DNA of 64,000 nucleotides from an uncultured Chromatiaceae bacterium (GCA_964415505.1 CAYQAR010000001.1:17908-81907); one strand, 5' to 3'; shown: positions 1 through 34,333, counted from the first letter of the stretch. Numbers and translations are program-made. Notes: a model not told the origin generated them from the letters alone.

Positions 1-1
1 A

Positions 2-181
2 GTCGTCGGCCTTGAGATCAAAGCGTCCGCGACCGTTCGGTCCGCAGATTTCGCCGGATTGCGGAAGCTGGCGGCGGCGGTCGGCAGCAAGTTCAGGTTG
101 GGCGTGGTTCTGCACGATGGGGACGCGGTCATCGGGTTCGGGGAGCATCTCGTCGCGGCGCCGCTTTCATGTCTCTGGTGA
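2..181 (+). CDS. C-terminal end of AAA ATPase/DUF4143 (restriction-endonuclease-like) protein, partial at window edge
   Basis: Frame 2 (absent from ORF track) reads VVGLEIKASATVRSADFAGLRKLAAAVGSKFRLGVVLHDG...APLSCLW*; EIK-A-S motif and tail are typical of the DUF4143 C-terminus. Confidence 0.75.
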   Translation, partial: VVGLEIKASATVRSADFAGLRKLAAAVGSKFRLGVVLHDGDAVIGFGEHLVAAPLSCLW

Positions 182-203
182 TCAGCGCCAGAGGGGCCGT
201 AAA

Positions 204-343
204 GCTTTCGTGGTATCTCGGCATCTATCGGCTTCAAGCGGCAACACGCGACGGTGGGCGTGACGGTAAAGGTCGCGCCCCTCGATACGAAAGTTCGTGC
301 ATTCAACCGCTTGCGGATACTGACAATGATTGAGTGGGAGTGA
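204..343 (+). repeat. Diverged ~140-bp direct repeat copy 1; putative att site ending in guaA-like 3' end (ATT GAG TGG GAG TGA = IEWE*)
   Basis: Shares GCTTTCG, TCTATCG-CT-CAAGCG, CGTGACGGT-AA and TTGAGTGGGAGTGA blocks, in the same order and spacing, with 1314-1454. Confidence 0.7.
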
Positions 344-538
344 GGACGGCGCTTCAGGATGCGCTCAACTCGCGGGCAAGTCTGCGGGCAGATTCGGGGA
401 AGAGATGGCCGAAACCGGAGCGCGTTTTCGGAGGAGGGACCAGATTCACCCTGAGGCCCGTTCGGGGAAGTGGGCGGCGCCCCGGAGGTACTTTGAATCT
501 CCGCCGTTACACCCGGAATATGCTATATTGCCGGCGAT

Positions 539-961
539 ATGAGTATGGTGCTGGACACGGACGTGATGATTGCCGCACTGCGCTCGCCGGCTGGGGCTTC
601 GTCCGAGTTGCTGCGCCAGGTTCTGGTCGGCAAACGGGTCGCCATGGCAAGCGTACCGCTGTTCGTCGAATATGAAGCCGTAATGAGCCGGCCGGAGCAC
701 CTGAAGGCAGCGGCGGCCACGGTCGAGGACGTGCGCAACCTGCTCGATGTGCTGGCGGGTGTCATCAAGCCGGTGGAGATTCGCTACCTGTGGCGGCCAC
801 AGCTGAGTGATGCCGATGACGATATGGTGCTTGAATGCGCGGCCAATGGCGGTGCTCGGCATCTGGTGACGTTCAATGTGGCCGACTTCAAGGGTCCGGC
901 CGAACCATTCGGAATCAGGCCCCTGACCCCTGGTCAGATGCTGAAGGAGATAAAGCTATGA
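539..961 (+). CDS. PIN-domain toxin, type II TA system
   Basis: VLDTDV start, conserved acidic residues, WRPQLSDADDDMVLECA and VTFNVADF motifs; ATGA overlap with the next gene. Confidence 0.9.
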   Translation: MSMVLDTDVMIAALRSPAGASSELLRQVLVGKRVAMASVPLFVEYEAVMSRPEHLKAAAATVEDVRNLLDVLAGVIKPVEIRYLWRPQLSDADDDMVLECAANGGARHLVTFNVADFKGPAEPFGIRPLTPGQMLKEIKL

Positions 962-1206
962 AGACCCCGAGCAACTACGCGCTGCGCCTGCCGGCTTCGC
1001 TCAAGAGGGCGGCTGAAGTGGTGGCACGCGAAGATGGCAGCACGCTCAACCAATTCATCGTGAGCGCGGTTGCCGAGAAGGTATCGGCACTGAAGACCGC
1101 CGAGTACTTCCAGGATCGCGCGACGCGCGGCGACAAGACAAAGGCCCTGCGTTTCCTGCGCCGCAAGGGTGGCGAGGCGCCGCGCTCTGGCGACGAGCGC
1201 CCCTGA
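958..1206 (+). CDS. Ribbon-helix-helix/HicB-like antitoxin
   Basis: MKTPSNYALRLPASLK...SxLNQFIVSAVAEKVSAL; AAGGAG RBS; translationally coupled to the PIN gene. Confidence 0.85.
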   Translation: MKTPSNYALRLPASLKRAAEVVAREDGSTLNQFIVSAVAEKVSALKTAEYFQDRATRGDKTKALRFLRRKGGEAPRSGDERP

Positions 1207-1313
1207 CGGCCAAATTGCTTGAATGACACCCGGCGCACCGCTGGCGCTGGCCGTGACTGCGATCAAATCTGCAGTGTCAGCGGCTGGGCGGATGCCATCC
1301 TCTTTTGGATGTC

Positions 1314-1454
1314 GCTTTCGGCATCTATCGCGCTCTATCGCCTCCAAGCGAGATGCCTTGTCGGTCGACGTGACGGTGAAATCACCTGACTCCCGTCGAG
1401 AACTTCAGCGACCACAAGGAATTGCGTGACCGCGAGATAGTTGAGTGGGAGTGA
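1314..1454 (+). repeat. Diverged direct repeat copy 2; putative att site ending in GTT GAG TGG GAG TGA (VEWE*)
   Basis: Same motif order as 204-343; TGACGGT-to-TTGAGTGG distance is 70 bp here and 69 bp in copy 1. Confidence 0.7.
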
Positions 1455-1521
1455 CGGAGCGGCTGTGGAAGGTCGAGTGGCGCGCCGGCAAGCCATGACC
1501 GGACGAAGGCCCTGGCTCAAA

Positions 1522-1914
1522 TCATTCCGGGCAATAACTCCCCATTTCCTCCACATCAACGCCGTCCTTCGCAGCTTCGGCAGCGATGCCGGGGTCGGTG
1601 ATCCCCACCAGGCAGCCCCCGCTGCCCCTCTTCAGGTTTGCCTGCTGGCCTCCCGGCATGGAGATGGTGATGTGCCCGTCGTCCCCCATGACGTAGGTGC
1701 CAGTCTCCGTGCTTCCCATGGCGGTGACCGCGACGGTATCACCGGACTGAAAGTTGAACTTCTCGATGAAAACCATCGGACTGTCCGGGTGCTTGGCGAC
1801 GAAGACGCCCGTCGGTTTGCCACTCCCCGCTCCGCCGCACCCTGCGAGCATCACGCCCAGCAGCGCACAGCACGCCGGACGACGCCATTCCGGAAATCGA
1901 TCACCAGTCATCAC
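1522..1914 (-). CDS. Hypothetical lipoprotein
   Basis: Lipobox LAGC after a hydrophobic stretch; overlaps the stop of the upstream gene. Confidence 0.65.
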   Translation of the reverse strand: MMTGDRFPEWRRPACCALLGVMLAGCGGAGSGKPTGVFVAKHPDSPMVFIEKFNFQSGDTVAVTAMGSTETGTYVMGDDGHITISMPGGQQANLKRGSGGCLVGITDPGIAAEAAKDGVDVEEMGSYCPE

Positions 1915-2537
1915 ACTCTCCCTCTCGCGGCGGCGGCGCCTTCACCATCCATTGTGTATCCCAGCAACCCGCCAACCGCATTGGCCAGAATCATGGCACG
2001 CTGGATGCTCAGCCAGCGCGCAATAACCACGGTCTTGCCGTCGTACTCCATATAGACCCGCTTGCCGGACGAATCAATGCCGCCAGCCACCATCATGGCG
2101 ACGCTCGTGGTTGCATCGGCGGCCATGGCCGACGCCCGGGCCATCGCGGGATCACCACCAAAGGGGTCGAGCTCGGCACGTCGCGCGACTTCGTTGTAGT
2201 CCTGCGCCGAGAGGCGGAAGTCCTGCCGGACACCGTTGGTCTCGACAAAGAGCCGCACAATCTTCGCCCGGTCATAGGTCTTTTTTCCGACCTTGAGGTC
2301 TTTATCGCCGACCGAGATTTCGCGTTTGCGCGAACGCCACCACGCCAGGATGCCGAGTGCGAGGAAAGGCAGTTGCCAGGCCCACCGCTCACCCAGGAGG
2401 AAAAACAGCGAGATCAGCGTAAAGAAGACGTACCAGGCGCATCCGGCCTTGAACCAGAGTTTGTCCTGCCGGTAGCGGATGACCTTCCGGCCGCCGCTCT
2501 CCGCATAGTCGAATCCGTATCTATAGTCTTTTTCCAT
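1911..2537 (-). CDS. Hypothetical membrane protein (2 TM helices)
   Basis: Start MEKDYRYG; two hydrophobic helices then a soluble domain; coupled to the lipoprotein gene. Confidence 0.6.
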   Translation of the reverse strand: MEKDYRYGFDYAESGGRKVIRYRQDKLWFKAGCAWYVFFTLISLFFLLGERWAWQLPFLALGILAWWRSRKREISVGDKDLKVGKKTYDRAKIVRLFVETNGVRQDFRLSAQDYNEVARRAELDPFGGDPAMARASAMAADATTSVAMMVAGGIDSSGKRVYMEYDGKTVVIARWLSIQRAMILANAVGGLLGYTMDGEGAAAARGRV

Positions 2538-2725
2538 GCTGTGCCAGCTGTCAGCCGAGCGGATTGAAGGTCGACGCGGTGCAATTCTGCCCGGGCGGTG
2601 GTGAACTGCATCGTGTTTGGCGGAGGGCGAAACGCCAGCACGGCCGTATTGCCCACCAACCGGGTTACGAGGCCGAGCAGGCGGGCGAGAACCGGACAAC
2701 TGTCGCTGGTCATCAGCGTTCTTCC

Positions 2726-3085
2726 ATGGGTTCTGGACAAGACGACGCTGTCGTGTGCCTTAGCGTATACGTATCAGGTAGCCGAATTGCAAGGGCGGCG
2801 CGAAGATCTTGCGCTGCACTCTGGAACCGCCCGGGTCGTCGGGACGCGGAAAGGCCGCTGACGCTGTGGTACGCAGAAGCGCGCCGGGCGAACTGGACGT
2901 CGCCTGCCGAAATCAAGGCGCGCTACCGACGGGCAAGCTTCCTGGCTGGCAATCGCGTGGTGTTTGACATCGCGGGTAACCGATACCGACTGGTGGTGAA
3001 AGTGAACTTCGACTTCGGAATCGTCTATGTGCGTTTCGTTGGCACGCATGCCGAGTACGATGCCATTGACGCAGGGAGTATCTGA
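2726..3085 (+). CDS. higB: HigB-family (RelE-like) toxin; start uncertain, 5' end possibly degenerate
   Basis: PLTLWYAEARRANWTSPAEIKARY..NRVVFDIAGNRYRLVVKVNFDFGIVYVRFVGTHAEYDAID; TGATG coupling to the antitoxin. Confidence 0.8.
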   Translation: MGSGQDDAVVCLSVYVSGSRIARAARRSCAALWNRPGRRDAERPLTLWYAEARRANWTSPAEIKARYRRASFLAGNRVVFDIAGNRYRLVVKVNFDFGIVYVRFVGTHAEYDAIDAGSI

Positions 3086-3438
3086 TGAACATCCGCCCCA
3101 TCAGGACCGAAAAGGACTACGAGCGGGCGCTCTCCCGTGTCGCCGCGCTCATGGACGCCAAGGCCGGCACGCCCGCGGGCGATGAACTCGATGTGCTGGC
3201 GACGCTCGTCGAAGCTTACGAGGACCGGCGCGAGCCGATGGCCGCCGTCAGCGCGATCGATGCCATCCTCTTTCGCATGGAGCAGCAGGGCCTGACCCGC
3301 AAGGACCTGGAACCCTACCTTGGCAGCCGGCATCGCGTGTCGGAGATCCTGAGCGGGCAGCGGCAGTTGTCGCTGGCGATGATCCGCAGGCTGCATGCCG
3401 GGCTGAAGATCCCGCTGGAGAATCTGATCCACGGTTGA
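3085..3438 (+). CDS. higA: HigA-family antitoxin (XRE HTH)
   Basis: MNIRPIRTEKDYERAL, DELDVLATLVEAYE, GLTRKDLEPYLGSRHRVSEILSG motifs. Confidence 0.9.
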   Translation: MNIRPIRTEKDYERALSRVAALMDAKAGTPAGDELDVLATLVEAYEDRREPMAAVSAIDAILFRMEQQGLTRKDLEPYLGSRHRVSEILSGQRQLSLAMIRRLHAGLKIPLENLIHG

Positions 3439-3488
3439 TCGCGGTGCCGGTTTTGGCTTGTTGAACAACGCTTTGTCGTCGATGGCGT

Positions 3489-3803
3489 GTGCTTGCCCGT
3501 GGACGGCTGCCCGAAGGGGCTCTACCAGGAGCGAGCCGGCACCTGGCGGTGCGCGGCTTCCGCGTGGAAGTGGCCGACTCCATCCACGGCCTCTATGGAC
3601 TCACGGGCGACACCGTGCTGCTCGCCACGCCGGTGGCGGATGGCGAAGAGATCGGCCGCTACGGGCCGGACACTGTCGTCGCCGTCATCGGCACGGCCGA
3701 GGATGGCGGCTGGTACTACGTCTCGCCCTGCAATGCCTGCGACAGCGGGTTCATTGCGCGTGCCGGCATCCGGCCGATACCCGAGCTCGACGGCGTTCGG
3801 TGA
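3489..3803 (+). pseudogene. Possible SH3b-like domain fragment
   Basis: C-terminal part (TVVAVIGTAEDGGWYYV...GFIARAGI) resembles bacterial SH3; no signal peptide or clear RBS. Confidence 0.35.
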
Positions 3804-3874
3804 CCGGGCGTGCGTCACCGAGCGTGCAGTGCGAGAGCGCGTGCTCGTGAACTGCGACCCGGCACCCCGTCAGG

Positions 3875-6148
3875 TCATGGCACCGGTGTCAGGTTGAAAA
3901 CGCCGTCGACCACAATCGGCGTTGTCTGGTCGACGATCTGGATATCCCTGAAGGCCATGTGGTCGATGCCGGCAACCGGCGTCGGGAAGCCGCCACCGGT
4001 GACGTAGGCGGCAATCGACAGGGCGTAGGTTCCTGGTAGCGGCATCCCGGCTGATGGACTGAAGATCCTGGCCGGGATCGTGTAGGTCAGTTGTGTGCCT
4101 GGCGTGGCGGCCCCGGGATCGATGTCGATATTCAGGAACCACATCGGGCTGGTCGTCACCGGCGGCTGCGTGCCTCCCGGGTACAGCACGGCCGCAAGCC
4201 GCCAGACCGGGCCGATCGTGCCCGGGTATGCCACCGTGAAGGTCAATGTGGTGTCGGTCTGCGCGTGGACGCGGTCGTTGCCGCCACCGGGTGGCGGGTT
4301 GGTGGTCGGTTCGGCAATCGGCAGCGTGGCGAAGAAATCCCAGATTGCATCGGCCTTGCTCCACCACTGGTGCCCGTCGCGGCCGGTGTCGTCGGTGAAG
4401 CACCATTGCACCGGATAGGGGGACGACCCGTCCGCGTAATCGATGCAGGGATCGGTCGTGCCGGGCCGGTAGGTGTCGAGGTTGAAACCGTTGTACAGCA
4501 CCCAGAAATCGCGCGTCGACTTGACGATGTCCGGAGAGACCACGGTGTCATTTCGGCTCTGGATCTGCATGACGGCGACGGAGCCGGTGCACGAAGGCGA
4601 GATCAGCGCACCGGAGCTCGGGGCAATGGCCCGCAGCAGGTCGCCATGCCGACAGCCGAGTTCGTGCACGAAGCCGGCGCCGGAACTGTGGCCGGTGGCG
4701 AAGATCCGCCGGTTGTCGAATACCAGCTTGCCCTTCAGCTCCGCAAGAAGGTCCTGGAAGAACGCGAAGTCGTAGCCGTAGTTCCACTGGTTGACGCCAT
4801 CCTCGCCTGGCAGTGCATTGAGGATGACGATGATGGCGTCATTGCCGACCTTCTGCCGGAGATCGCTGCCTTCGTTCGAATAGATGCCGCCCGGCATGAA
4901 GTTGCGGTAGGTGCCGCCGGTGCCATGGAACATGAAGAGCAGCGGCTTCGGCTCGCCCGTAACCGAGTAGTCGGAGGGGATCTCGAGGTAATAGCTGCGT
5001 TCGATATCCTGCGAGTTCATGGTCTTGAGGCCGGACTGCGGCGGCGGCTGCAGGCCCTTGCGCAACCGACCGGTGATGTCGTCGGCTTGAGCCACCAGCC
5101 GTGCTGCATCGGCCGCTGGAACCCAGTGCCCCGACAACCAGTGCAGCTTCCAGGAGAACCAGCTGAGGTGGATCACCGCCGGAAAGTCGCGGTTTCGGCG
5201 AATCGCCAGCCCAGCCCGCCTGAGATCGTCCGTCAGGAAGCGTGTGAGCCGTCGCGGAAGGTGAAGTGCAGAGAGATCACTGCCCAGTTTCGCCAGCAGA
5301 TCCGGTACTGAGCCACCTGTGACCGGCCCCAGCGACACGACAAAGTTCACCGCACTGCCGGCCGGGACACAGGCCTCGCAGGCCGAAGGATTCTGGCTGA
5401 CTACGGCCCCTGGCGGTACACTCGGATGATTGGCCTCGGTGACCGTGCCCACCACGAGCCCGGCATCGGTCACGGCGGCCTCCGCGGCCGACTGGTCCAG
5501 TCCACGGACTTCGGGTGCCGCCACGTGCGGCGTGATCGCCGAGACCTCGAACTCCAGCTGGATGCCTGCTCGACCGGGGTCTGCCGTCCATGCCGGCGAC
5601 TGCAACACCAGCGTCGAGCCATCGAAGGCGGATACAGCCGCGGCGTAATCGGCCAGTTGCTGCTGCGGGCCGGCCATCACGTCATCGCCGCCAACAGTGC
5701 GGGTGCCCGGGATCGTGGTGTAGTTCAGCGTGGTCTGGTTCGTGAAGTCGTCACCGTAGGTCGTGTTTGCACAGAGGCTCGCACCCACGAATGCGCCGAA
5801 GCCGCCTTCGACGCAGGCATACGACGTGGCGGCAATCGCCGTGCCAGCCACGTTGAGCACCGCACCCCGGAATTCGTGCGAGTAGAGCACGGTGGCCGGA
5901 CCCAGCTTGAACACCGCCGTGGTCGATGGCGAGACCTGCGTGACGGTACCGGCGGTGTCGTCATAAATGAATTCGGTGCCATCGAGCGAGGCTGCCGCGA
6001 CCATGCCATTGCTGCTGCCAGCGGAAATCCGCACCAGCTTCAGGCCGTACTGGGCGGCGGATGCGGGTGCAGGCAGGCCGGTCAGGAGCGTGGCAAGCCC
6101 AAGGGCCATGCCCATGGCAGCCAGAAACGCCTTGCGGGTCATCTTCAT
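3875..6148 (-). CDS. Secreted multidomain protein: N-terminal domain, PASTA domain, alpha/beta-hydrolase (PHB-depolymerase/LpqC-like esterase), C-terminal beta domain
   Basis: Signal peptide; PEVRGLDQSAAEAAVTDAGL...VPPGAVVSQNP (PASTA); FHGTGG, GHSSG, NDTVV and GHQW catalytic motifs. Confidence 0.8.
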   Translation of the reverse strand: MKMTRKAFLAAMGMALGLATLLTGLPAPASAAQYGLKLVRISAGSSNGMVAAASLDGTEFIYDDTAGTVTQVSPSTTAVFKLGPATVLYSHEFRGAVLNVAGTAIAATSYACVEGGFGAFVGASLCANTTYGDDFTNQTTLNYTTIPGTRTVGGDDVMAGPQQQLADYAAAVSAFDGSTLVLQSPAWTADPGRAGIQLEFEVSAITPHVAAPEVRGLDQSAAEAAVTDAGLVVGTVTEANHPSVPPGAVVSQNPSACEACVPAGSAVNFVVSLGPVTGGSVPDLLAKLGSDLSALHLPRRLTRFLTDDLRRAGLAIRRNRDFPAVIHLSWFSWKLHWLSGHWVPAADAARLVAQADDITGRLRKGLQPPPQSGLKTMNSQDIERSYYLEIPSDYSVTGEPKPLLFMFHGTGGTYRNFMPGGIYSNEGSDLRQKVGNDAIIVILNALPGEDGVNQWNYGYDFAFFQDLLAELKGKLVFDNRRIFATGHSSGAGFVHELGCRHGDLLRAIAPSSGALISPSCTGSVAVMQIQSRNDTVVSPDIVKSTRDFWVLYNGFNLDTYRPGTTDPCIDYADGSSPYPVQWCFTDDTGRDGHQWWSKADAIWDFFATLPIAEPTTNPPPGGGNDRVHAQTDTTLTFTVAYPGTIGPVWRLAAVLYPGGTQPPVTTSPMWFLNIDIDPGAATPGTQLTYTIPARIFSPSAGMPLPGTYALSIAAYVTGGGFPTPVAGIDHMAFRDIQIVDQTTPIVVDGVFNLTPVP

Positions 6149-17720: not shown

Positions 17721-18473
17721 ATGAGCGAGGACGACAAGTCGGTAGTCGCCAAAACGATCGCCGACCGGACCTATCAGCGCATGCGGCGCGACATCATCTC
17801 GGGGGCACTTGCCCCCGGGACGAAACTCGCGATGGAGATGCTGTCGAAGCGTTACGATGTGGGTCTGAGCCCGCTGCGCGAAGCGCTCGTGAGGCTGACC
17901 GGTGATGCGCTTGCCGTGGCCGAGGGGCAGCGTGGATTCTGGGTATCCCCGATCTCGCTGGGCGAACTGCAGGACATGAACGATGCGCGCCTGCTGATCG
18001 AAAGCCAGGCACTCGCGCTGGCAATCGAGCGTGGCGGCGAGGACTGGGAGCAGACCGTCACGCAGGCCTACCAGGAAATCACCGTCCTGGAACGGCAACT
18101 GGATCGCGGGGACAGCGCTACCTTCGTGCGCTGGGAGAACGGCAACCGGCGCTTCCATGAGGCGCTGGTATCGGCCTGCGGTTCACCCTGGCTGATACGC
18201 CTGCGGAGCCTGCTGCACCAGCATGCCGAGCGCTACCGTATGATCTCGCTGGCGCAGAACATGATCTCGCGCGATGTCCACGATGAACACGAGGCGATTT
18301 TCGATGCGGCCATTGCGCGCAAGTCATTGCGGGCCTGCCGCCTGATCGAAATGCATCTGCAGCGCACGGTCGATGTGGTGCGGACGGCGCTTGAGCGTCC
18401 GGTTGAGGCGGTTGCGGCCAAGCGTTCCCCACGTGCGGCCACGAAACGAGGCAAATCGGCCAGTCGCCGATAG
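17721..18473 (+). CDS. GntR/FCD family regulator (CsiR-like)
   Basis: LAPGTKL..YDVGLSPLREALVRL HTH; NRRFHEALVSACGS and EHEAIFDA FCD motifs. Confidence 0.9.
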   Translation: MSEDDKSVVAKTIADRTYQRMRRDIISGALAPGTKLAMEMLSKRYDVGLSPLREALVRLTGDALAVAEGQRGFWVSPISLGELQDMNDARLLIESQALALAIERGGEDWEQTVTQAYQEITVLERQLDRGDSATFVRWENGNRRFHEALVSACGSPWLIRLRSLLHQHAERYRMISLAQNMISRDVHDEHEAIFDAAIARKSLRACRLIEMHLQRTVDVVRTALERPVEAVAAKRSPRAATKRGKSASRR

Positions 18474-18504: not shown

Positions 18505-18595
18505 TAGGGCCTGTTGACATTCATTGATAGTATTTGCCTCCACCTTCTTCAATAAGTTGGAGGCAAATACTATCAATGAATGTCAACAGGCCCTA
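18505..18595. mobile_element. MITE-like element: 38-bp perfect inverted repeat with 15-nt spacer
   Basis: TAGGGCCTGTTGACATTCATTGATAGTATTTGCCTCCA (18505-18542) and its exact reverse complement (18558-18595); AT-rich; TA at both ends. Confidence 0.7.
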
Positions 18596-18665
18596 ATTTG
18601 ATCACCGTGTTGGGAAACCATTGGATGGGAATGACTCTCTGGTCAGAAGCGCCAACCGCGCGACG

Positions 18666-19112
18666 ATGACCGATACCGAATTCATGACCCAGGCGCTGGC
18701 GCTGGCGCGCCGGGCTCAGGACGCCGGCGAGGTGCCGGTCGGCTGCGTCATCGTGCACGAGGGCAGGGTGGTCGCCACCGGCAGCAACCAGCCGATCGCG
18801 AGCGGCGACCCGACGGCGCATGCCGAGATCGTGGCGCTGCGGGCAGCGGCGCGCGCACTCGGCAACTACCGCCTGCCGGATTGCACACTGTACGTGACGC
18901 TCGAGCCCTGCCCGATGTGCGCCGGGGCGATGGTGCACGCGCGCATCGCGCGGCTCGTCTATGGCGCGGCCGATCCGCGTGCGGGTGCGGCCGGCACGGT
19001 GTTCGACCTCGCGCGCAGCGAGGCGCTGAACCATCGCATCGCGGTCGAGGGCGGCCTCCTCGCGGAGGAGAGTCGCGCGTTGCTGCAGGCGTTCTTCCGC
19101 AGCCGGCGCTGA
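18666..19112 (+). CDS. tadA: tRNA adenosine(34) deaminase
   Basis: GEVPVG, DPTAHAE, TLEPCPMCAGA and FFRSRR motifs. Confidence 0.95.
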   Translation: MTDTEFMTQALALARRAQDAGEVPVGCVIVHEGRVVATGSNQPIASGDPTAHAEIVALRAAARALGNYRLPDCTLYVTLEPCPMCAGAMVHARIARLVYGAADPRAGAAGTVFDLARSEALNHRIAVEGGLLAEESRALLQAFFRSRR

Positions 19113-19118
19113 GCAGCG

Positions 19119-20585
19119 TCAGCCGCGCCGGTTCGCGGCCGGGCGTGCGGCGACCTTCGTGCGACCAAGGTTGGCCTGTATCGCCGGCGGCGCGCTGCGC
19201 TGCTGCAGCCAGGGCGTGCCGTCATCCCCGCTCTCGTCGCGCGTCGCCCAGGCGAGCGCGTTGTAGTAGGTGCGCACGTTGTTGACGAAGTGCAGCGTCT
19301 CGCCGCCGCGGGCGTAGCCGTGGCGGGTCTTAGTGGCGATGGCCGGGTCGGCAAGCAGGCGGATGTGCGGGCGCACGTCGGTCCAGCGGTTCCAGTCGCC
19401 ACCGCGCTCACGCGTCAGGCGTCGCGCGTCGAGCAGGTGGCCGTAGCCGATGTTGTAGGTGGCGAGCGCGAACCACGTGCGGTCCGGCTCCTGGATGGTG
19501 TCGGGCAGCTTGTCGAGGATGTGGGCGAAGTAGCGCGCAGCGCCGCGGATGCTCTGCGCCGCATCGGTGCGGTCCTCGATGCCGAAGGTCGTCGCGGTTT
19601 CCTCGGTGAGCATCATCAGCCCACGCACGCCGGTCGGGGAGACGGCCTCGGGATCCCATTTCGATTCCTGGTAGCCGATCGCGGCCAGCAGACGCCAGTC
19701 GAGGTCGTGCTCGGTGGCCGCCGCCCGGAAGAGCGCGCGATACGAGGGCAGGCGCGCGCGCACATCCTTCATGTACTGGCGGGTGCCGACGTAGTCGATG
19801 CGCGGGACCGTGCCGTAGTAGTGGTCGAGGATGCGGTCGAGTTCACCGCTGGCGCGGATGGTCTCGAAGTAGCGGGCCGCAGCCTCGCGCAGGCTCGAAT
19901 CGGCACGCTTCGGGAAAGCCCAGGCTACCGACTCGCCTTCGGCGAGGTTGAACGCCACGCGGATTTCCGGGATGTAGGTGCGGTACACCGCGAAGGCATT
20001 CGATTTGACCACGGTGTAGTCGAGGCTGCCCTGGGCCACGCGGGTCAGCAGATCCTGCTGGTCGGCGACCGGGTTCTCCGTCCAGACCAGCTCCGGGTGT
20101 CGGGCCTGGGCGCGAGCCAGCGTCTTGACATAAGACGTCCCCGAGCCCACCTCCAGGCGCTTGCCGCGCAGCTGGGTGACATCCCGTGGCCGGCGCCGGC
20201 CCTCGCGGTAGATGAGGTGTTCGGTGACCTGCTGGAAGGCCGGGCCGAAATCGACCTGGCGTGCGGTGTCCGGATTGACGGTCAGACCCGCTGCTGCCAG
20301 ATGCGCTACCCCATCCACCACGGTCGGTAGCACATCGGTCGGACGGTCGACGACCATCAGGCGCAGCCGCACCCCGAGGAAGTCGGCAAAGCCGCGGATC
20401 AGGTCGTATTCCGGACCGGCCGGTCCCTCGCCGGAGGTGAAATAGGTGTGCGGCCCGTTGCGGGTGACAACGCGCAGTTCCCCGGTCGCCTGGACCTCCT
20501 CGAGGAGGGACGGCGGCCGGGCGCAGGTACCCAGCACTGCCGTCGTGCAGAGCAGGATTCCAGCCTTGACGCGTCGTGAAAGCAC
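19119..20585 (-). CDS. mltF: Membrane-bound lytic murein transglycosylase F
   Basis: Substrate-binding-protein-like N-domain plus YQESKWDP, GVRGLMML, YNIGYGH and GYARG; start uncertain. Confidence 0.92.
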   Translation of the reverse strand: MLSRRVKAGILLCTTAVLGTCARPPSLLEEVQATGELRVVTRNGPHTYFTSGEGPAGPEYDLIRGFADFLGVRLRLMVVDRPTDVLPTVVDGVAHLAAAGLTVNPDTARQVDFGPAFQQVTEHLIYREGRRRPRDVTQLRGKRLEVGSGTSYVKTLARAQARHPELVWTENPVADQQDLLTRVAQGSLDYTVVKSNAFAVYRTYIPEIRVAFNLAEGESVAWAFPKRADSSLREAAARYFETIRASGELDRILDHYYGTVPRIDYVGTRQYMKDVRARLPSYRALFRAAATEHDLDWRLLAAIGYQESKWDPEAVSPTGVRGLMMLTEETATTFGIEDRTDAAQSIRGAARYFAHILDKLPDTIQEPDRTWFALATYNIGYGHLLDARRLTRERGGDWNRWTDVRPHIRLLADPAIATKTRHGYARGGETLHFVNNVRTYYNALAWATRDESGDDGTPWLQQRSAPPAIQANLGRTKVAARPAANRRG

Positions 20586-20789
20586 GCGGTTCTTCCTCCG
20601 CTCCCGGCCATCTGTCGCAGCCGGTTCGCCATTTGCGGTGCAAACGTTACCATGGAGGCCCCGGGCGGTACCATTGGGCCGGGTCACCCTTATCGGGATG
20701 ACCATTATGTTTATAGAACGTTAAAACAATGAGTTACAGTATCTTCTTAAATCTGTTAGCTATTAGTTGGCCCGGGGCAGGCGAGCGCC

Positions 20790-23172: not shown

Positions 23173-24246
23173 TCAGCGCAACGGCATGCGCGTGCCGTCG
23201 TCGGTGACGACTTCGCGCTCGGGCCAGCGCACGGCGCCGAGGCGGGTGTGATCGGTCGCACCGTTCCCGGCCGCGCGTTCGCGGTAGCGGGCGCCGATGC
23301 CGAAGTCGAGGCAATACACGTTGCGTCCGGCGCCGTGCCACTCGTTCCAGGCGCTGCCGTCGAAGAGATCGTGTTCGCCGCGCGAGAACCGGGCGCGCGC
23401 CGCCAGTGTGGTCCAGCGCCAGTAGTGGCCGATCAGCACGGGGGTGTCGTGGCGGTAGCGCGCCCACCAGCGGACGCGGTCGAGCATGCGCCACTTGCCG
23501 GCGGCGAAGAAGGTGCGGTCCGCCAGCGCTTCCGGGCCGGAGGTGAGGATGCGCAGCGGATTGGCCATCTGGTGAAGGGCATCGAGGCGGCCGACGTCGG
23601 CGAGGAGCGGCACCGTGGCCTGCGGATCGCTCAGCCGCGCGCCATGCTCGCGCCACTCGGCGGCGGCCCGTTCGGCGAGGCCGCTGCGGCGGGCCACCTC
23701 ATTGGCACGGCCGGCGTAGGCCTGGTAGATATCGGCCGTGCTGCCGCGGCACTCGCGCAGCAGGTCGAGCGCCGCATCGTCCCAGGCGGCGTGCACCAGG
23801 CGCAGGTCGGGCCGTTCGAGGACCGCCGGCAGCGTGGCGACGAAGGCGGCGATGTCGGTGCGTGTGGCGGCTGTGGCGCGCCGGGCGGTGAGGAACTTCC
23901 CGCTGTCGCGGTCGTGATCGGTTGCGAAGAACCAGCCGTTGCCTTCCTTGACGGCGCCGCGCAGCAGGTTCAGCTCGTGGTTGCCGAGCAGGCACTGTGC
24001 CCGGCCGCGCGCGACGAGCCCCGCTACGAGACCGAACACGCCCGGGCTATCTTCGCCGCGGTCGCAGAGATCGCCGATGAACGCGAGCCGCCGACCGGCG
24101 GGGTGGCTGCCGGCGCTGTCATAGCCGAGCAGGGCGAGCAGCTGGCGCAGCGCGCCGATCTCGCCGTGCACGTCGCCGACGATGTCGATGGGACCGTCGT
24201 GGAGCGGCTGGAAGAGGTGGTTTGCCGGGACGGGGCGCAGCGTCAT
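23173..24246 (-). CDS. Calcineurin-like metallophosphoesterase (PPP/ApaH-like)
   Basis: GDVHG, GDLCDRG, LGNHE, VHA and GHYW motifs. Confidence 0.9.
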   Translation of the reverse strand: MTLRPVPANHLFQPLHDGPIDIVGDVHGEIGALRQLLALLGYDSAGSHPAGRRLAFIGDLCDRGEDSPGVFGLVAGLVARGRAQCLLGNHELNLLRGAVKEGNGWFFATDHDRDSGKFLTARRATAATRTDIAAFVATLPAVLERPDLRLVHAAWDDAALDLLRECRGSTADIYQAYAGRANEVARRSGLAERAAAEWREHGARLSDPQATVPLLADVGRLDALHQMANPLRILTSGPEALADRTFFAAGKWRMLDRVRWWARYRHDTPVLIGHYWRWTTLAARARFSRGEHDLFDGSAWNEWHGAGRNVYCLDFGIGARYRERAAGNGATDHTRLGAVRWPEREVVTDDGTRMPLR

Positions 24247-30066: not shown

Positions 30067-30408
30067 ATGTCCGCCCGCCGACTTTACAAAATCTCGTTCG
30101 TCAACCAGGGCAAGGTCTACGAGATCTACGCCCGGTCCGTGAGCCAGGGAACGCTGTTCGGCTTCATCGAGGTCGAGAAGCTCGTCTTCGGCGAGCGCAG
30201 CACCGTGGTGGTCGACCCGTCCGAGGAACGCATCAAGGCCGAGTTCGAGGGGGTGCGCCGCACCTACCTGCCGATGCACTCCGTGCTGCGCATCGACGAA
30301 GTCGAGAAGGAAGGCGTCAGCAAGATCAGCAAGGCCGAGGGCAGCAACGTCGCCCAGTTCCCGATGCCGGTCTACAGCCCCGGCAGCCGTCATGACGGCG
30401 GTGACTGA
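30067..30408 (+). CDS. DUF1820 family protein
   Basis: [30 protein letters not shown] and IDEVEKEG motifs; TATAAT at 30000-30005. Confidence 0.85.
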
Positions 30409-33400
30409 GCCGGCTGGTCCGCCACGGCCGGGGCTGCACGAGTTTCCCGGCCCACCGGCCCTGTCCGATTTCCGCCTGGCACGCCTGCTGGGCCAGGTCC
30501 AGGCCGTGGCGCCGCGCGTGACCGGGCTCGAGGCGCGCTTCGTGCACTACGTGGATGCAGCGACCGGCCTGACGCCGCGCGAGCGCGACACGCTTGGCGA
30601 ACTGCTGCACTACGGGTCGACCCGCGCGCCGCGGGCCGGCGCCGTGCCGGCGCTCTGGGTCGTCCCGCGACTCGGCACGATCTCGCCGTGGGCGAGCAAG
30701 GCGACCGACATCGCGCGCCTCTGCGGGCTCGGCGCCGTGCGGCGCATCGAGCGCGGCGTGGCCTGGAGCCTCGCGAGCGCGGTGCCGCTGTCGACCGTCG
30801 AGATCGGGGCGATCGCCCCGCTGGTCCACGACCGTATGACCGAGTCGGTGCTCACCCGTCCGGTCGAGGCGCTCGATCTGTTCGCGCGCCAGCCACCGGC
30901 GCGAGTGCGCCGCGTCGCGCTCGGCACGGGCGCCCGTGCGGCTCTCGAGACCGCCAACCGCGATCTCGGCCTCGCCCTCTCCACCGACGAAATCGATTAC
31001 CTCGCCAGGCACTTCGGCGAACTCGGCCGCGATCCGACCGACGCCGAACTGATGATGTTCGCGCAGGCGAACTCCGAGCATTGCCGACACAAGATCTTCA
31101 ACGCGACCTGGATCATCGACGGTGAGGCGCAGCCGCAGACCCTCTTCGACCTGATCCGCGCCACGCACGCTACCAACCCGGCCGGCGTGCTCAGCGCCTA
31201 CCGCGACAACGCTGCGGTCGTGGCCGGTGCCACGGCAGGACGGCTGCTCGCCGACCCGGCGACGGGCGCGTACCGGCTCGAACATGAGCCGGTGCACACC
31301 CTCGTGAAGGTCGAGACGCACAACCACCCGACGGCGATTTCGCCCTTTCCGGGTGCAGCCACCGGTGCCGGCGGCGAGATCCGCGACGAAGGCGCGACCG
31401 GGCGCGGTGCCAGGCCCAAGGCCGGGCTCTGCGGCTTCACGGTCTCACACCTGCGCCTGCCCGACGGCGCCGAGCCCTGGGAGAACGGTGGCCTCGGCCG
31501 GCCACGGCGCGTCGCCGCGCCGCTGCAGATCATGCTGGAAGGACCGATCGGTGCGGCCGCATTCAACAACGAGTTCGGCCGGCCGAACATCGCCGGCTAC
31601 TTCCGCACCTTCGAGCAGTCCATGGCGGGCGAGGCCGGCCGCGCCTGGGGTTACCACAAGCCGATCATGATCGCCGGCGGGCTCGGCAACATCCGCGAGG
31701 CCGACGTCCACAAGGCCGAGGTACCGCCCGGTGCGTTGCTGGTGGTGCTTGGCGGCCCAGCCATGCTGATCGGACTCGGTGGCGGCGCGGCCTCGTCGAT
31801 GACCGCCGGAACGAGCACCGAGGATCTCGACTTCGCCTCCGTCCAGCGTGGCAATCCGGAGATGCAGCGCCGCGCCCAGCAGGTGATCGAGTCCTGCTGG
31901 GCGGCTGGTGCGTCACCGTCGGGACACAACCCGATCCTCATCGTGCATGACGTCGGTGCCGGCGGGCTGTCGAATGCGCTGCCCGAACTCGTCGACCACA
32001 GTCACCGCGGCGCGCGGCTCGAGTTGCGCGACATCCCGAGCGCCGAGCCCGGGCTGTCGCCGGCGGAGATCTGGTGCAACGAGGCGCAGGAGCGCTACGT
32101 GCTGGCCATCGCGCCGGCCGACCTCGCCTGGTTCGCTGCCGCCTGTGAGCGCGAGCGTTGCCCGTTCGCCGTGCTCGGCTCGGCCGATACGAGCGGACAA
32201 CTGACGGTCACCGACCGCCTGCACGGCGAGCCGCCGGTCGACCTGCCCCTCGAGGTGCTGCTCGGCAAGCCGCCGCGCACGGTGATGACCGTGACGCGCG
32301 CTCGCCGCAGTGTGCCGGCAGCGGCCTTTGCGCACCTCGATCTGGCCGAATCCTGCCGGCGCGTGCTGCGCTTCCCGGCGGTCGCCGACAAGTCGTTCCT
32401 CATCCACATCGGCGATCGCACCGTCGGCGGCCTCGTCTGCCGCGACCAGCTGGTCGGGCCGTGGCAGGTGCCGGTGGCCGACGTCGCGGTCACTGCGCTT
32501 GGGTTCGAGGGCAGCGCAGGCGAGGCGATGGCGATGGGCGAACGCACACCGCTCGCCGTGCTCGACCCGCCCGCTTCCGGGCGCATGGCGGTCGGCGAAG
32601 CGCTGACCAACGTGCTCGCCGGCGGCATCAGCGCCCTCGACGAGGTGCGCCTGTCGGCCAACTGGATGGCGGCGAGCGGCGTGGCCGGCGAGGACGAAGC
32701 GCTGTTCGATACCGTCAGTGCGGTGAGCGTGCTGGCGCGGGCGCTGCGCATCGCCATCCCGGTCGGCAAGGACTCGCTCTCCATGCGCACGGCCTGGCAG
32801 GACCGCGGCCAGCCGAAGGCCGTGGTGGCGCCGGTGTCGCTGATCGTGTCGGCCTTCGCGCCGGTGCCCGATGTCACCCGCACGCTGACGCCGGAACTCG
32901 TGCGGACCGGCGACACGGAACTCTACCTCGTCGATCTCGGTGCCGGGCGCAATCGCCTGGGCGGTTCCTGCCTCGCGCAGGTGCACGGCATCGCCGGCGG
33001 GGCGGTGCCCGATGTGGACGACCCGGCGCGCCTCGCGGCATTCGCCGAGATCGTGCTCGGGCTGCACCGGCGCGGCCTGCTGCTCGCGTATCACGACCGC
33101 AGCGACGGCGGCATCTTCGCCACGCTGGCCGAGATGGCCTTCGCCGGCCGTGCCGGCTTCGCGATCGACCTGCCGCCGGGCGAGGGTGGGGCGGTCGGTG
33201 CGCTGTTCACCGAGGAACTGGGTGCAGTGCTGCAGCTGCGCGCCACCGATGTGCCCGCGCTCGAAGCGGCCTGCGCGGGCGCTGGTCTCGGCCACTGCCT
33301 GCACCGGCTCGGCGCCGTCGACGGCAGCGACCGGCTGGTCTTCCGCCACGATGGCCAGGTGCTGCTCGACTTCACCCGCGGGGAACTGCGGGCGACGTGG

Positions 33401-34333
33401 TCAGAGCTGAGTTACCGCATGCAGGCGCTGCGCGACCATCCGGCGGCGGCAGCCGAAGCCCACGCGACCGCCTGCGACGAGGCAGACCCGGGCCTTGCCC
33501 CGGTGCTCAGTTTCGCTCCGGCGGAAAACGTCGCGGCGCCGTTCATAGCCACCGGGGTGCGCCCGCCGGTCGCCATCCTGCGCGAGCAGGGCGTGAACAG
33601 CCAGCTCGAGATGGCGGCGGCCTTCCTGCGCGCCGGTTTCGCCCCGGTCGACGTGCACATGTCCGACCTGCTCGAGGGGCGCCGCTCGCTTGCGGAGTTC
33701 CGTGGCCTGGTGATCTGCGGCGGTTTTTCCTTCGGCGACGTGCTCGGCGCCGGTGGTGGCTGGGCGAAATCGATCCTGTTCAACGCGCAGGCGCGCGCCG
33801 GCTTCCAGGCGTTCTTCGAGCGCACCGACACGTTCACGCTCGGCGTGTGCAACGGCTGCCAGATGCTCGCCACGCTGCGCCCGATCATCCCCGGCACGGC
33901 GCACTGGCCGCGCTTCGTGCAGAACTTCTCCGAGCAGTTCGAGGCGCGCCTGAACCTGGTCGAGGTGCTGCCGAGCCGCTCGGTGCTGCTTGGCGGGATG
34001 ACGGGCAGCCGGCTGCTGATCGCGACCTCGCACGGCGAGGGCCGCGCCGAGTTTGCAGCCCCGACCGATCTGCCGGCCTGCTACGCCGCCGGCCAGGTGG
34101 CGATCCGCTACGTCGACAACCACGGGCGCCCGGCACGCAGCTATCCCGCCAATCCGAACGGATCGCCGGACGGCGTGGCGGGATTCACGTCTGCGGACGG
34201 TCGTGTGACGGTCTTCATGCCGCACCCGGAACGCGTTCACCTCACGCGCCAGCACTCCTGGGCGCCGCGGGAATGGGGCGAGGAAGGCCCGTGGCTACGG
34301 ATGTTCCGCAACGCCCGGGCGTGGGTGGGCTGA
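30392..34333 (+). CDS. purL: Phosphoribosylformylglycinamidine synthase (large type)
   Basis: [27 protein letters not shown] and MPHPER motifs. Confidence 0.98.

Follow-up and report, generated by a model that had tools for sequence, protein, structure and literature searches.

The stretch of DNA that we analyzed, hereafter the window, comprises 64,000 nt and corresponds to positions 17908 to 81907 of contig C1 in the source assembly (G000; 3,283,825 bases, 96.6% complete). Near its left end lie two direct repeats, designated units 1 and 2, on either side of a putative toxin-antitoxin (TA) gene pair; the end of an ATPase gene precedes the first repeat, and tadA, mltF, and purL are found farther downstream. 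A third unit was recovered from contig C50 of the same assembly. Features are given below with their profile matches or, for units 1 and 2, with their score against R1, a sequence-only model of four units.

1..181, plus strand: 3′ end of a DUF4143/AAA_14 ATPase gene (Pfam DUF4143, 1.3e-46; AAA_14, 1.1e-24)
199..343, plus strand: unit 1, candidate attR-type junction (R1, 98.4 bits)
344..538, plus strand: noncoding left part of the TA segment
539..961, plus strand: PIN-domain toxin gene, PIN_3 (PF13470, E 5.8e-20; TIGR00305, E 4e-9)
958..1206, plus strand: small putative antitoxin gene (sub-threshold matches to YlcI/YnfO_N, E 7.7e-6, and HicB, E 1.3e-3)
1310..1454, plus strand: unit 2, candidate attR-type junction (R1, 114.4 bits)
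18597..19112, plus strand: tadA (Pfam)
19119-20720, minus strand: mltF (Pfam)
30143-34333, downstream of tadA and mltF: purL (Pfam)
C50:19783-19927, minus strand: unit 3 (72% identity with unit 2, E 2.8e-13)

Units 1 and 2 share a single order of parts: phased motifs, a GACGGT-like pair, a spacer of ~65 nt, and a 14-mer, TTGAGTGGGAGTGA. In unit 1, TTTCG and TCTATCG-like motifs with 10-nt phasing occupy 208-241, the GACGGT pair lies at 250-255 and 262-267, and the spacer of ~65 nt leads to an exact copy of the 14-mer at 330-343. Unit 2 has two copies of TCTATCG at 1318-1340, followed by GTCGGT (1360-1365) and GACGGT (1372-1377), 12 nt apart, and then by the spacer and the other exact 14-mer at 1441-1454. 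Each unit has a degenerate distal arm site, which reads GTCGGT in unit 2 and CGACGGTGGG in unit 1. The units have 55% identity over ~145 nt, with 52 of 61 aligned bases identical in the 5′ block of the alignment. This block has a local alignment score of 35. When 145-nt pieces were drawn at random from the window 2000 times, the score averaged 15.8 ± 2.4 and peaked at 26, so that 0 of 2000 reached 35, and the outcome was unchanged when the 14-nt core was removed. An earlier, sequence-only reading of this DNA had described two diverged direct repeats with GACGGT-like pairs at 250/262 and 1360/1372 and an (I/V)EWE-stop translation of both repeat ends. Both descriptions proved accurate, the translated ends being ATTGAGTGGGAGTGA at 329-343 and GTTGAGTGGGAGTGA at 1440-1454. 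The same reading had proposed aligning the repeats with the 3′ end of guaA; a derivation from guaA holds for the last ~15 to 18 nt of each repeat but not for the other ~125 nt, which represent the arm of an element rather than guaA sequence. These two copies are the only exact occurrences of the 14-mer in the 3,283,825-base assembly, and the 14-mer contains within it the att-site core motif GAGTGGGA, the core of GIsul2. At 0.62, GC content over the first 3 kb is below the genome value of 0.684, and a promoter and terminator consensus scan of 1-1700 found neither.

Within 344-1309, the only open reading frames (ORFs) are those of the PIN toxin and the antitoxin, which overlap by 4 nt with the toxin coming first; the segment has no integration or transfer genes, as is the case in a cis-mobilizable element (CIME). 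The two genes form a candidate type II TA pair with a PIN (VapC-like) toxin. The product of 958-1206 is likely a ribbon-helix-helix antitoxin, a prediction from sequence that we grade only as likely because the matches of this gene are sub-threshold. Of the PIN/ribbon-helix-helix pair named in the sequence-only reading, the PIN half is thus backed by the PIN_3 match (E 5.8e-20), and the antitoxin half has sub-threshold matches only. The segment has identical 14-nt cores on both sides and a full right arm (unit 2), with no left-arm motifs in 344-512; left-arm sites of the GACGGTAAA type are absent from 344-538. A 54-nt match (85% identity), starting at the shared core, was found between 330-382 and the sequence after the TA-associated unit in the metagenome contig L195, so that the first ~40 nt of the segment (344-382) resemble that sequence. 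Homology with other copies of the TA operon starts at 513, and 344-512 is not common to them.

The PIN protein was not found in 43 other genomes of its own family and is 80 to 87% identical in three genomes from another family of the same order. In those three, nucleotide homology spans 513-1219 only, and no unit was found within 1.5 kb, which means that the operon has additional ways of moving. A second TA pair, made up of HigB (PF09907, E 8.6e-30) and a helix-turn-helix (HTH) antitoxin, lies at 2800-3438, 1.4 kb past unit 2, and a copy that is 86% identical is present on contig C118 of a related genome, G002.

The ATPase gene at the left edge starts at C1:16850, ~1.06 kb before the window, and is the cargo of a preceding cassette. 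This cassette is opened by a fourth core, ACAATTGAGTGGGAGTAG, at C1:16413-16427, located 1.5 kb before the window starts. Just ahead of this core is what is left of a unit, its core-proximal ~58 nt (degenerate unit plus core, C1:16368-16427), and ~200 nt of left-arm (P′) sequence, homologous to DNA following guaA in G006 and G004, come after it. Along C1, the parts thus follow one another as core, left arm, ATPase, unit 1, TA pair, and unit 2. Contig C50 ends (23400-23415) with GATCGAGTGGGAGTGA, possibly the last 16 nt of guaA. Read inward from that end, it carries an RsgA-like gene, a Fic gene, an unknown ORF, unit 3, and an HlyD/ABC cluster. The source assembly has at least four junctions (three full units and one partial), all in the guaA-type core orientation and none elsewhere. 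No further core was detected between unit 2 and tadA, where 17 kb of other genes intervene. Unit 2 does not form the final junction with the chromosome, because these 17 kb of variable genes still lie before tadA.

The DUF4143 AAA ATPase is a recurrent cargo directly behind guaA in relatives, as observed in G002 (contig C499; guaA, ATPase, unit) and G004 (contig C44; guaA, left arm, truncated ATPase). The N terminus of the truncated G004 protein resembles that of the ATPase upstream of the window. The DUF4143 ATPase cassettes of G000 and G002 share only 108 nt at 75% identity, and we rejected the idea that they are one cassette on that ground.

Searches of the 96.6%-complete source assembly with PF00958 and TIGR00884 gave 0 hits for guaA, and no convincing copy of guaB was found in it. 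Since guaA was not assembled, the array is tied to guaA through gene order shared with relatives and through the 16 nt at the end of C50, where by our own estimate a 12-nt match is expected ~0.4 times genome-wide by chance. The sequence-only reading had placed guaA, and then a tyrosine integrase, upstream of the window; that expectation failed, as the upstream 17.9 kb of C1 has neither, an outcome that the reading itself had named as refuting it. Its other statements about the gene neighborhood fared better. A GuaA ending in IEWE-stop was confirmed in relatives, with guaA found in 12 of the 14 other genomes of the genus and all 15 recovered ends reading TIEWE-stop with ...ATYGAGTGGGARTRR. Empty sites, which it had suggested looking for, exist in G011 and G007, where tadA begins within ~45 nt of the guaA stop. 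The arrangement of guaA upstream of tadA-mltF-purL is likewise upheld by this adjacency and by the tadA-mltF-purL order in the window. In comparison to the empty sites, guaA and tadA are 73 kb apart in G009 and 94 kb apart in G012; the interval is a hotspot. In the window, tadA lies 17 kb downstream of the units, and the tadA-mltF-purL side fits the empty sites by orientation. Considered together, the missing guaA and guaB and the C50 end suggest an assembly break at a strain-variable integration hotspot.

Two smaller observations concern this interval. Three contigs of G010 (C21, C9, and C54) begin or end with an identical guaA 3′ end, a pattern that fits repeated, near-identical att copies breaking that assembly. 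Just upstream of tadA, at 18505-18595, there is a 91-nt near-perfect palindrome (DNA fold, -46 kcal/mol), which is single copy in the genome and is not conserved upstream of tadA in relatives.

Complete elements with the same arms were recovered from two relatives. In G012, guaA is followed by an arm, in which TCTATCG repeats accompany a GACGGTAAA pair, and then by genes for a tyrosine integrase (Phage_integrase, 2.8e-22; Arm-DNA-bind_3, 8.5e-18), OLD/UvrD-type proteins, and AlpA; a second core lies 78.4 kb downstream, with a GACGGTAAGGATGACGGTAAA pair ~65 nt before it and another left arm after it. In G268 (contig C34), the order is guaA, arm, a gene for a 418-amino-acid (aa) integrase, ~40 kb of sequence, and a full-length unit. 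The attR arms of both integrase-bearing elements have the same layout as the units in the window. Identity between these integrases is 62%, and they have 53.8% (G012) and 52% (G268) identity to the GIsul2 integrase on pAB3. Directly after its integrase, the 78-kb G012 guaA element encodes an OLD-family nuclease/ATPase and a UvrD-type helicase (L024, 1870-5705), a putative Gabija-like defense pair.

No integrase was found on C1 or C50. The five tyrosine-recombinase hits in the source assembly are on C6, C9, C13, C31, and C76, and none is a cognate GIsul2-family integrase; the only relative of the guaA-type integrase is 34% identical and sits beside tRNA-Leu. A tblastn search for integrase remnants over nine cassette-bearing sequences found none (best E, 2.2).

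The attR-like units together with the empty sites in relatives lead us to read the repeats as stacked attR-type junctions in the guaA-tadA hotspot. We assign a probability of about 85% to the repeats being attR (arm plus core) of GIsul2-family guaA islands, likely the scars of elements stacked between guaA and tadA. The repeats had already been proposed from sequence to be attR-type ends of tandem guaA-specific elements, and the occurrence of the same motifs and spacing at the right ends of the G012 and G268 elements bears this out. The TA pair between the units is likely an integrase-less remnant of a guaA island and an ordinary case of a known process. In such a process, the integrase would contact the GACGG pair through its arm-binding domain, and an accessory protein, AlpA for example, would recognize the TCTATCG motifs. 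Incoming elements would have integrated through core-to-core recombination (accretion), with the integrase and most of the cargo probably lost afterward; a clean deletion must be assumed, because decay left no integrase trace in the nine sequences. The TA pair may have been kept beside its attR because loss of a TA pair is penalized. In its present state, the 1.1-kb segment is most probably an inert leftover without an integrase, and excision between its two identical cores might be possible if a cognate integrase entered the cell. Read as stacked attR junctions, the locus would be a well-delimited example of a guaA-tadA hotspot built by site-specific accretion in an environmental bacterium.

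The TA operon recurs with its downstream unit inside guaA arrays in two metagenome contigs, where the left neighbors differ. In L195, the end of guaA is followed by a left arm and transposase fragment, the TA pair (89.7% nucleotide identity), and a unit; in L196, the order is unit, left arm, TA pair (90.3% nucleotide identity), unit, and another PIN gene. The antitoxin gene is kept with the PIN gene in both (94 to 95% amino acid identity). Unit 2 has 69 to 73% identity to the units following the TA pair in L195 and L196, and the three TA-linked units (window, L195, and L196) are mutually 69 to 77% identical, compared to 54 to 55% identity to unit 1. Third-codon divergence among the TA copies is 0.16 to 0.24. 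From the likeness of the TA-linked units and the divergence of the TA genes, it follows that the TA pair and its right-hand unit have shared their divergence as a single module. Between the left core and the TA promoter, by comparison, the three copies have unrelated DNA. In L196, the TA pair is flanked by a full left arm as well as a right arm, and a circle excised from there would thus possess a complete attP. A BLAST-level search of 89 family genomes with the L196 left arm found only G006 and two short motif hits, and no integrase-linked example of this left-arm type was found in those 89 genomes. A more remote PIN pair, with 42% identity, is enclosed by two cores in L222. Units or cores were nearby in 3 of 99 PIN-relative loci examined, and PIN TA pairs recur in guaA arrays (the window, L195, L196 twice, and L222). 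A second, different PIN_3 gene, without a left arm, is located at 3070-3356 of L196, ~100 nt past the unit that closes the TA pair, so that this array holds successive TA cassettes.

The stretch is present in public metagenome contigs from 19 runs in 11 studies, and contigs from two runs span unit 1 through unit 2, TA pair included, with 0 to 2 mismatches. Over C1:16408-21407, contigs of four metagenome runs had no joint that skips the TA pair, a result that does not speak against mobility because contigs hide rare excision. Loose contig ends at unit 2 were other unit copies, and the exact 38-nt unit-2 junction had 0 matches in metagenome contigs.

The closest known system is GIsul2 (PMC9376610), an island of Shigella, Acinetobacter (pAB3), and IncC plasmids, which inserts at the guaA 3′ end at GAGTGGGA, has three att sites, and encodes an integrase that excises and integrates an integrase-less CR2-sul2 unit between two att sites. 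The window resembles GIsul2 in its core, GAGTGGGA, which is that of guaA 3′-end integration, in having more than two att sites in tandem, in an integrase-less subunit bounded by two cores, and in a TA module within the island; in addition, the integrases of the relatives' elements are 52 to 54% identical to GIsul2 Int. The arms differ. Those in the window have TCTATCG and GACGGTAAA, whereas the GIsul2 ends on pAB3 are of the TGGCA/CATGGTAT type and have no GACGGTA next to the integrase; the window units therefore belong to a sister branch. Unlike GIsul2, the source genome has no such integrase, and the cargo is a PIN/antitoxin pair only, with no resistance genes.

In two of the relatives, we also observed verbatim GIsul2 or CR2 ends. 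On contig C213 of G013 (L015), 75 of 75 nt after guaA are identical to the GIsul2 left end on pAB3, and on contig C34 of G268 (L066), 80 of 80 nt after the unit core are identical to the attLR/CR2 flank of GIsul2, so that these environmental bacteria harbor the resistance-island family itself.

Tandem accretion of ICEs and IMEs (ICESt1 family) and of CIMEs is covered in a review (PMC5704250). The window, as read here, shares with CIMEs and the ICESt1 family a stack of elements, built up as newcomers integrate site-specifically at an att site already occupied in the 3′ end of a housekeeping gene. Unlike the ICESt1 family, it involves another integrase family and host phylum, and the TA segment has a core only on its left side, with no recognizable left-arm sites. 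Besides the GIsul2 paper (PMC9376610) and the IME review (PMC5704250), our search found no published description of integrase-less cassette arrays at guaA, and a literature search by motif returned unrelated primer hits only.

TA cassettes of superintegrons stabilize integron arrays, and the sgiAT system is a TA system that stabilizes the genomic island SGI1. The window is similar to these cases in having an addiction module inside an array of horizontally acquired segments, and by analogy with them, the TA pair may stabilize the array. Unlike integron TA cassettes, the TA pair here is bounded by lambda/P4-type arm-plus-core sites rather than attC hairpins, with no IntI. The segment does not fit an integron gene cassette, which has an IntI integrase, an attI site, and attC hairpin sites: the units consist of direct-repeat arm motifs and a gene-end core, and no tyrosine recombinase was found on C1 or C50.

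A different explanation is that the TA pair and the neighboring single-gene segments are true integrase-less cassettes moved by an integrase supplied in trans, with the guaA end serving as an integron-like platform. We consider this unlikely, though it has observations on its side. The GIsul2 integrase moves the integrase-less CR2-sul2 unit (PMC9376610), a precedent that makes plausible the suggestion of the sequence-only reading that the TA pair could be a minimal cassette excised in trans. The TA pair and its unit occupy different positions in three arrays, and the distant PIN pair of L222 also lies between cores. Integrase-less segments between a core and a unit recur, with three in the source genome, one in G002 (the DUF4143 ATPase), and one in G006. 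Moreover, integrase remnants are absent in 9 of 9 sequences, and the circle formed by the L196 TA segment, with both arms, would hold a complete attP. Against movement in trans, the cognate integrase was not found in the source genome, and the stretch separating the TA promoter from the left core is not conserved in the three copies, which indicates that whole core-to-core units were not simply moved. The contigs of the four runs had no TA-skipping joint, with the reservation that contigs hide rare variants, and neither unit of the window has kept its distal arm site intact.

A broader version can be put forward only tentatively, namely, that the guaA-end platform inserts, shuffles, and excises cassettes made up of cargo, an arm of ~130 nt, and a core by means of GIsul2-family integrases of rarer full-size elements. 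It is likewise a doubtful possibility that the PIN TA pair, the DUF4143 ATPase, and the Fic/RsgA-like block are the cassettes of such a platform in the source genome and that the platform operates in many Proteobacteria. If mobility in trans does hold for integrase-less segments, the locus would amount to a natural platform for cassettes, related to the CR2-sul2 one that spreads sul2.

Two further explanations of the repeats compete with the stacked attR junctions and survive poorly. A dispersed host repeat (REP/MITE-like or a small RNA) with a guaA-like 14-mer by chance would fit units that are short, noncoding, and multicopy, but it is very improbable: an Rfam scan of 1-4000 of the window gave no match at E ≤ 1, there are only three full copies and one partial copy, in the guaA-type core orientation and none elsewhere, and the copies in relatives lie downstream of guaA and close integrase-bearing elements. 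Scarcely credible, too, is an origin of the repeats as guaA pseudogene fragments from segmental duplication, which would account for the (I/V)EWE-stop at both ends but not for the upstream ~125 nt, which in the IEWE frame are unlike the GuaA C terminus conserved in 15 of 15 ends and which are homologous to element arms beside integrases.

The units, read as attR junctions of guaA islands, are not confined to the source genome. R1 had hits in 14 of 89 family genomes, the source genome included: 5 of the 14 other genomes of its genus and 8 of 31 in a second genus had hits, and there were 0 in seven other genera. The present analysis defines the arm anatomy: TCTATCG motifs in phase are combined with a GACGGTAAA pair, and the spacing to the core is fixed at ~65 nt. 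This anatomy belongs to a widespread and apparently uncharacterized branch of the GIsul2 integrase family. When a collection of species-representative genomes was scanned with the pattern TGACGGYRAA-N50-80-GAGTGGGARTRR, at least 123 stretches across Proteobacteria matched, and the matches listed were mostly from Beta-, Gamma-, and Alphaproteobacteria. A second GACGG, which the pattern did not demand, was present 12 to 13 nt upstream in 53 of the 76 units extracted from the matches listed.
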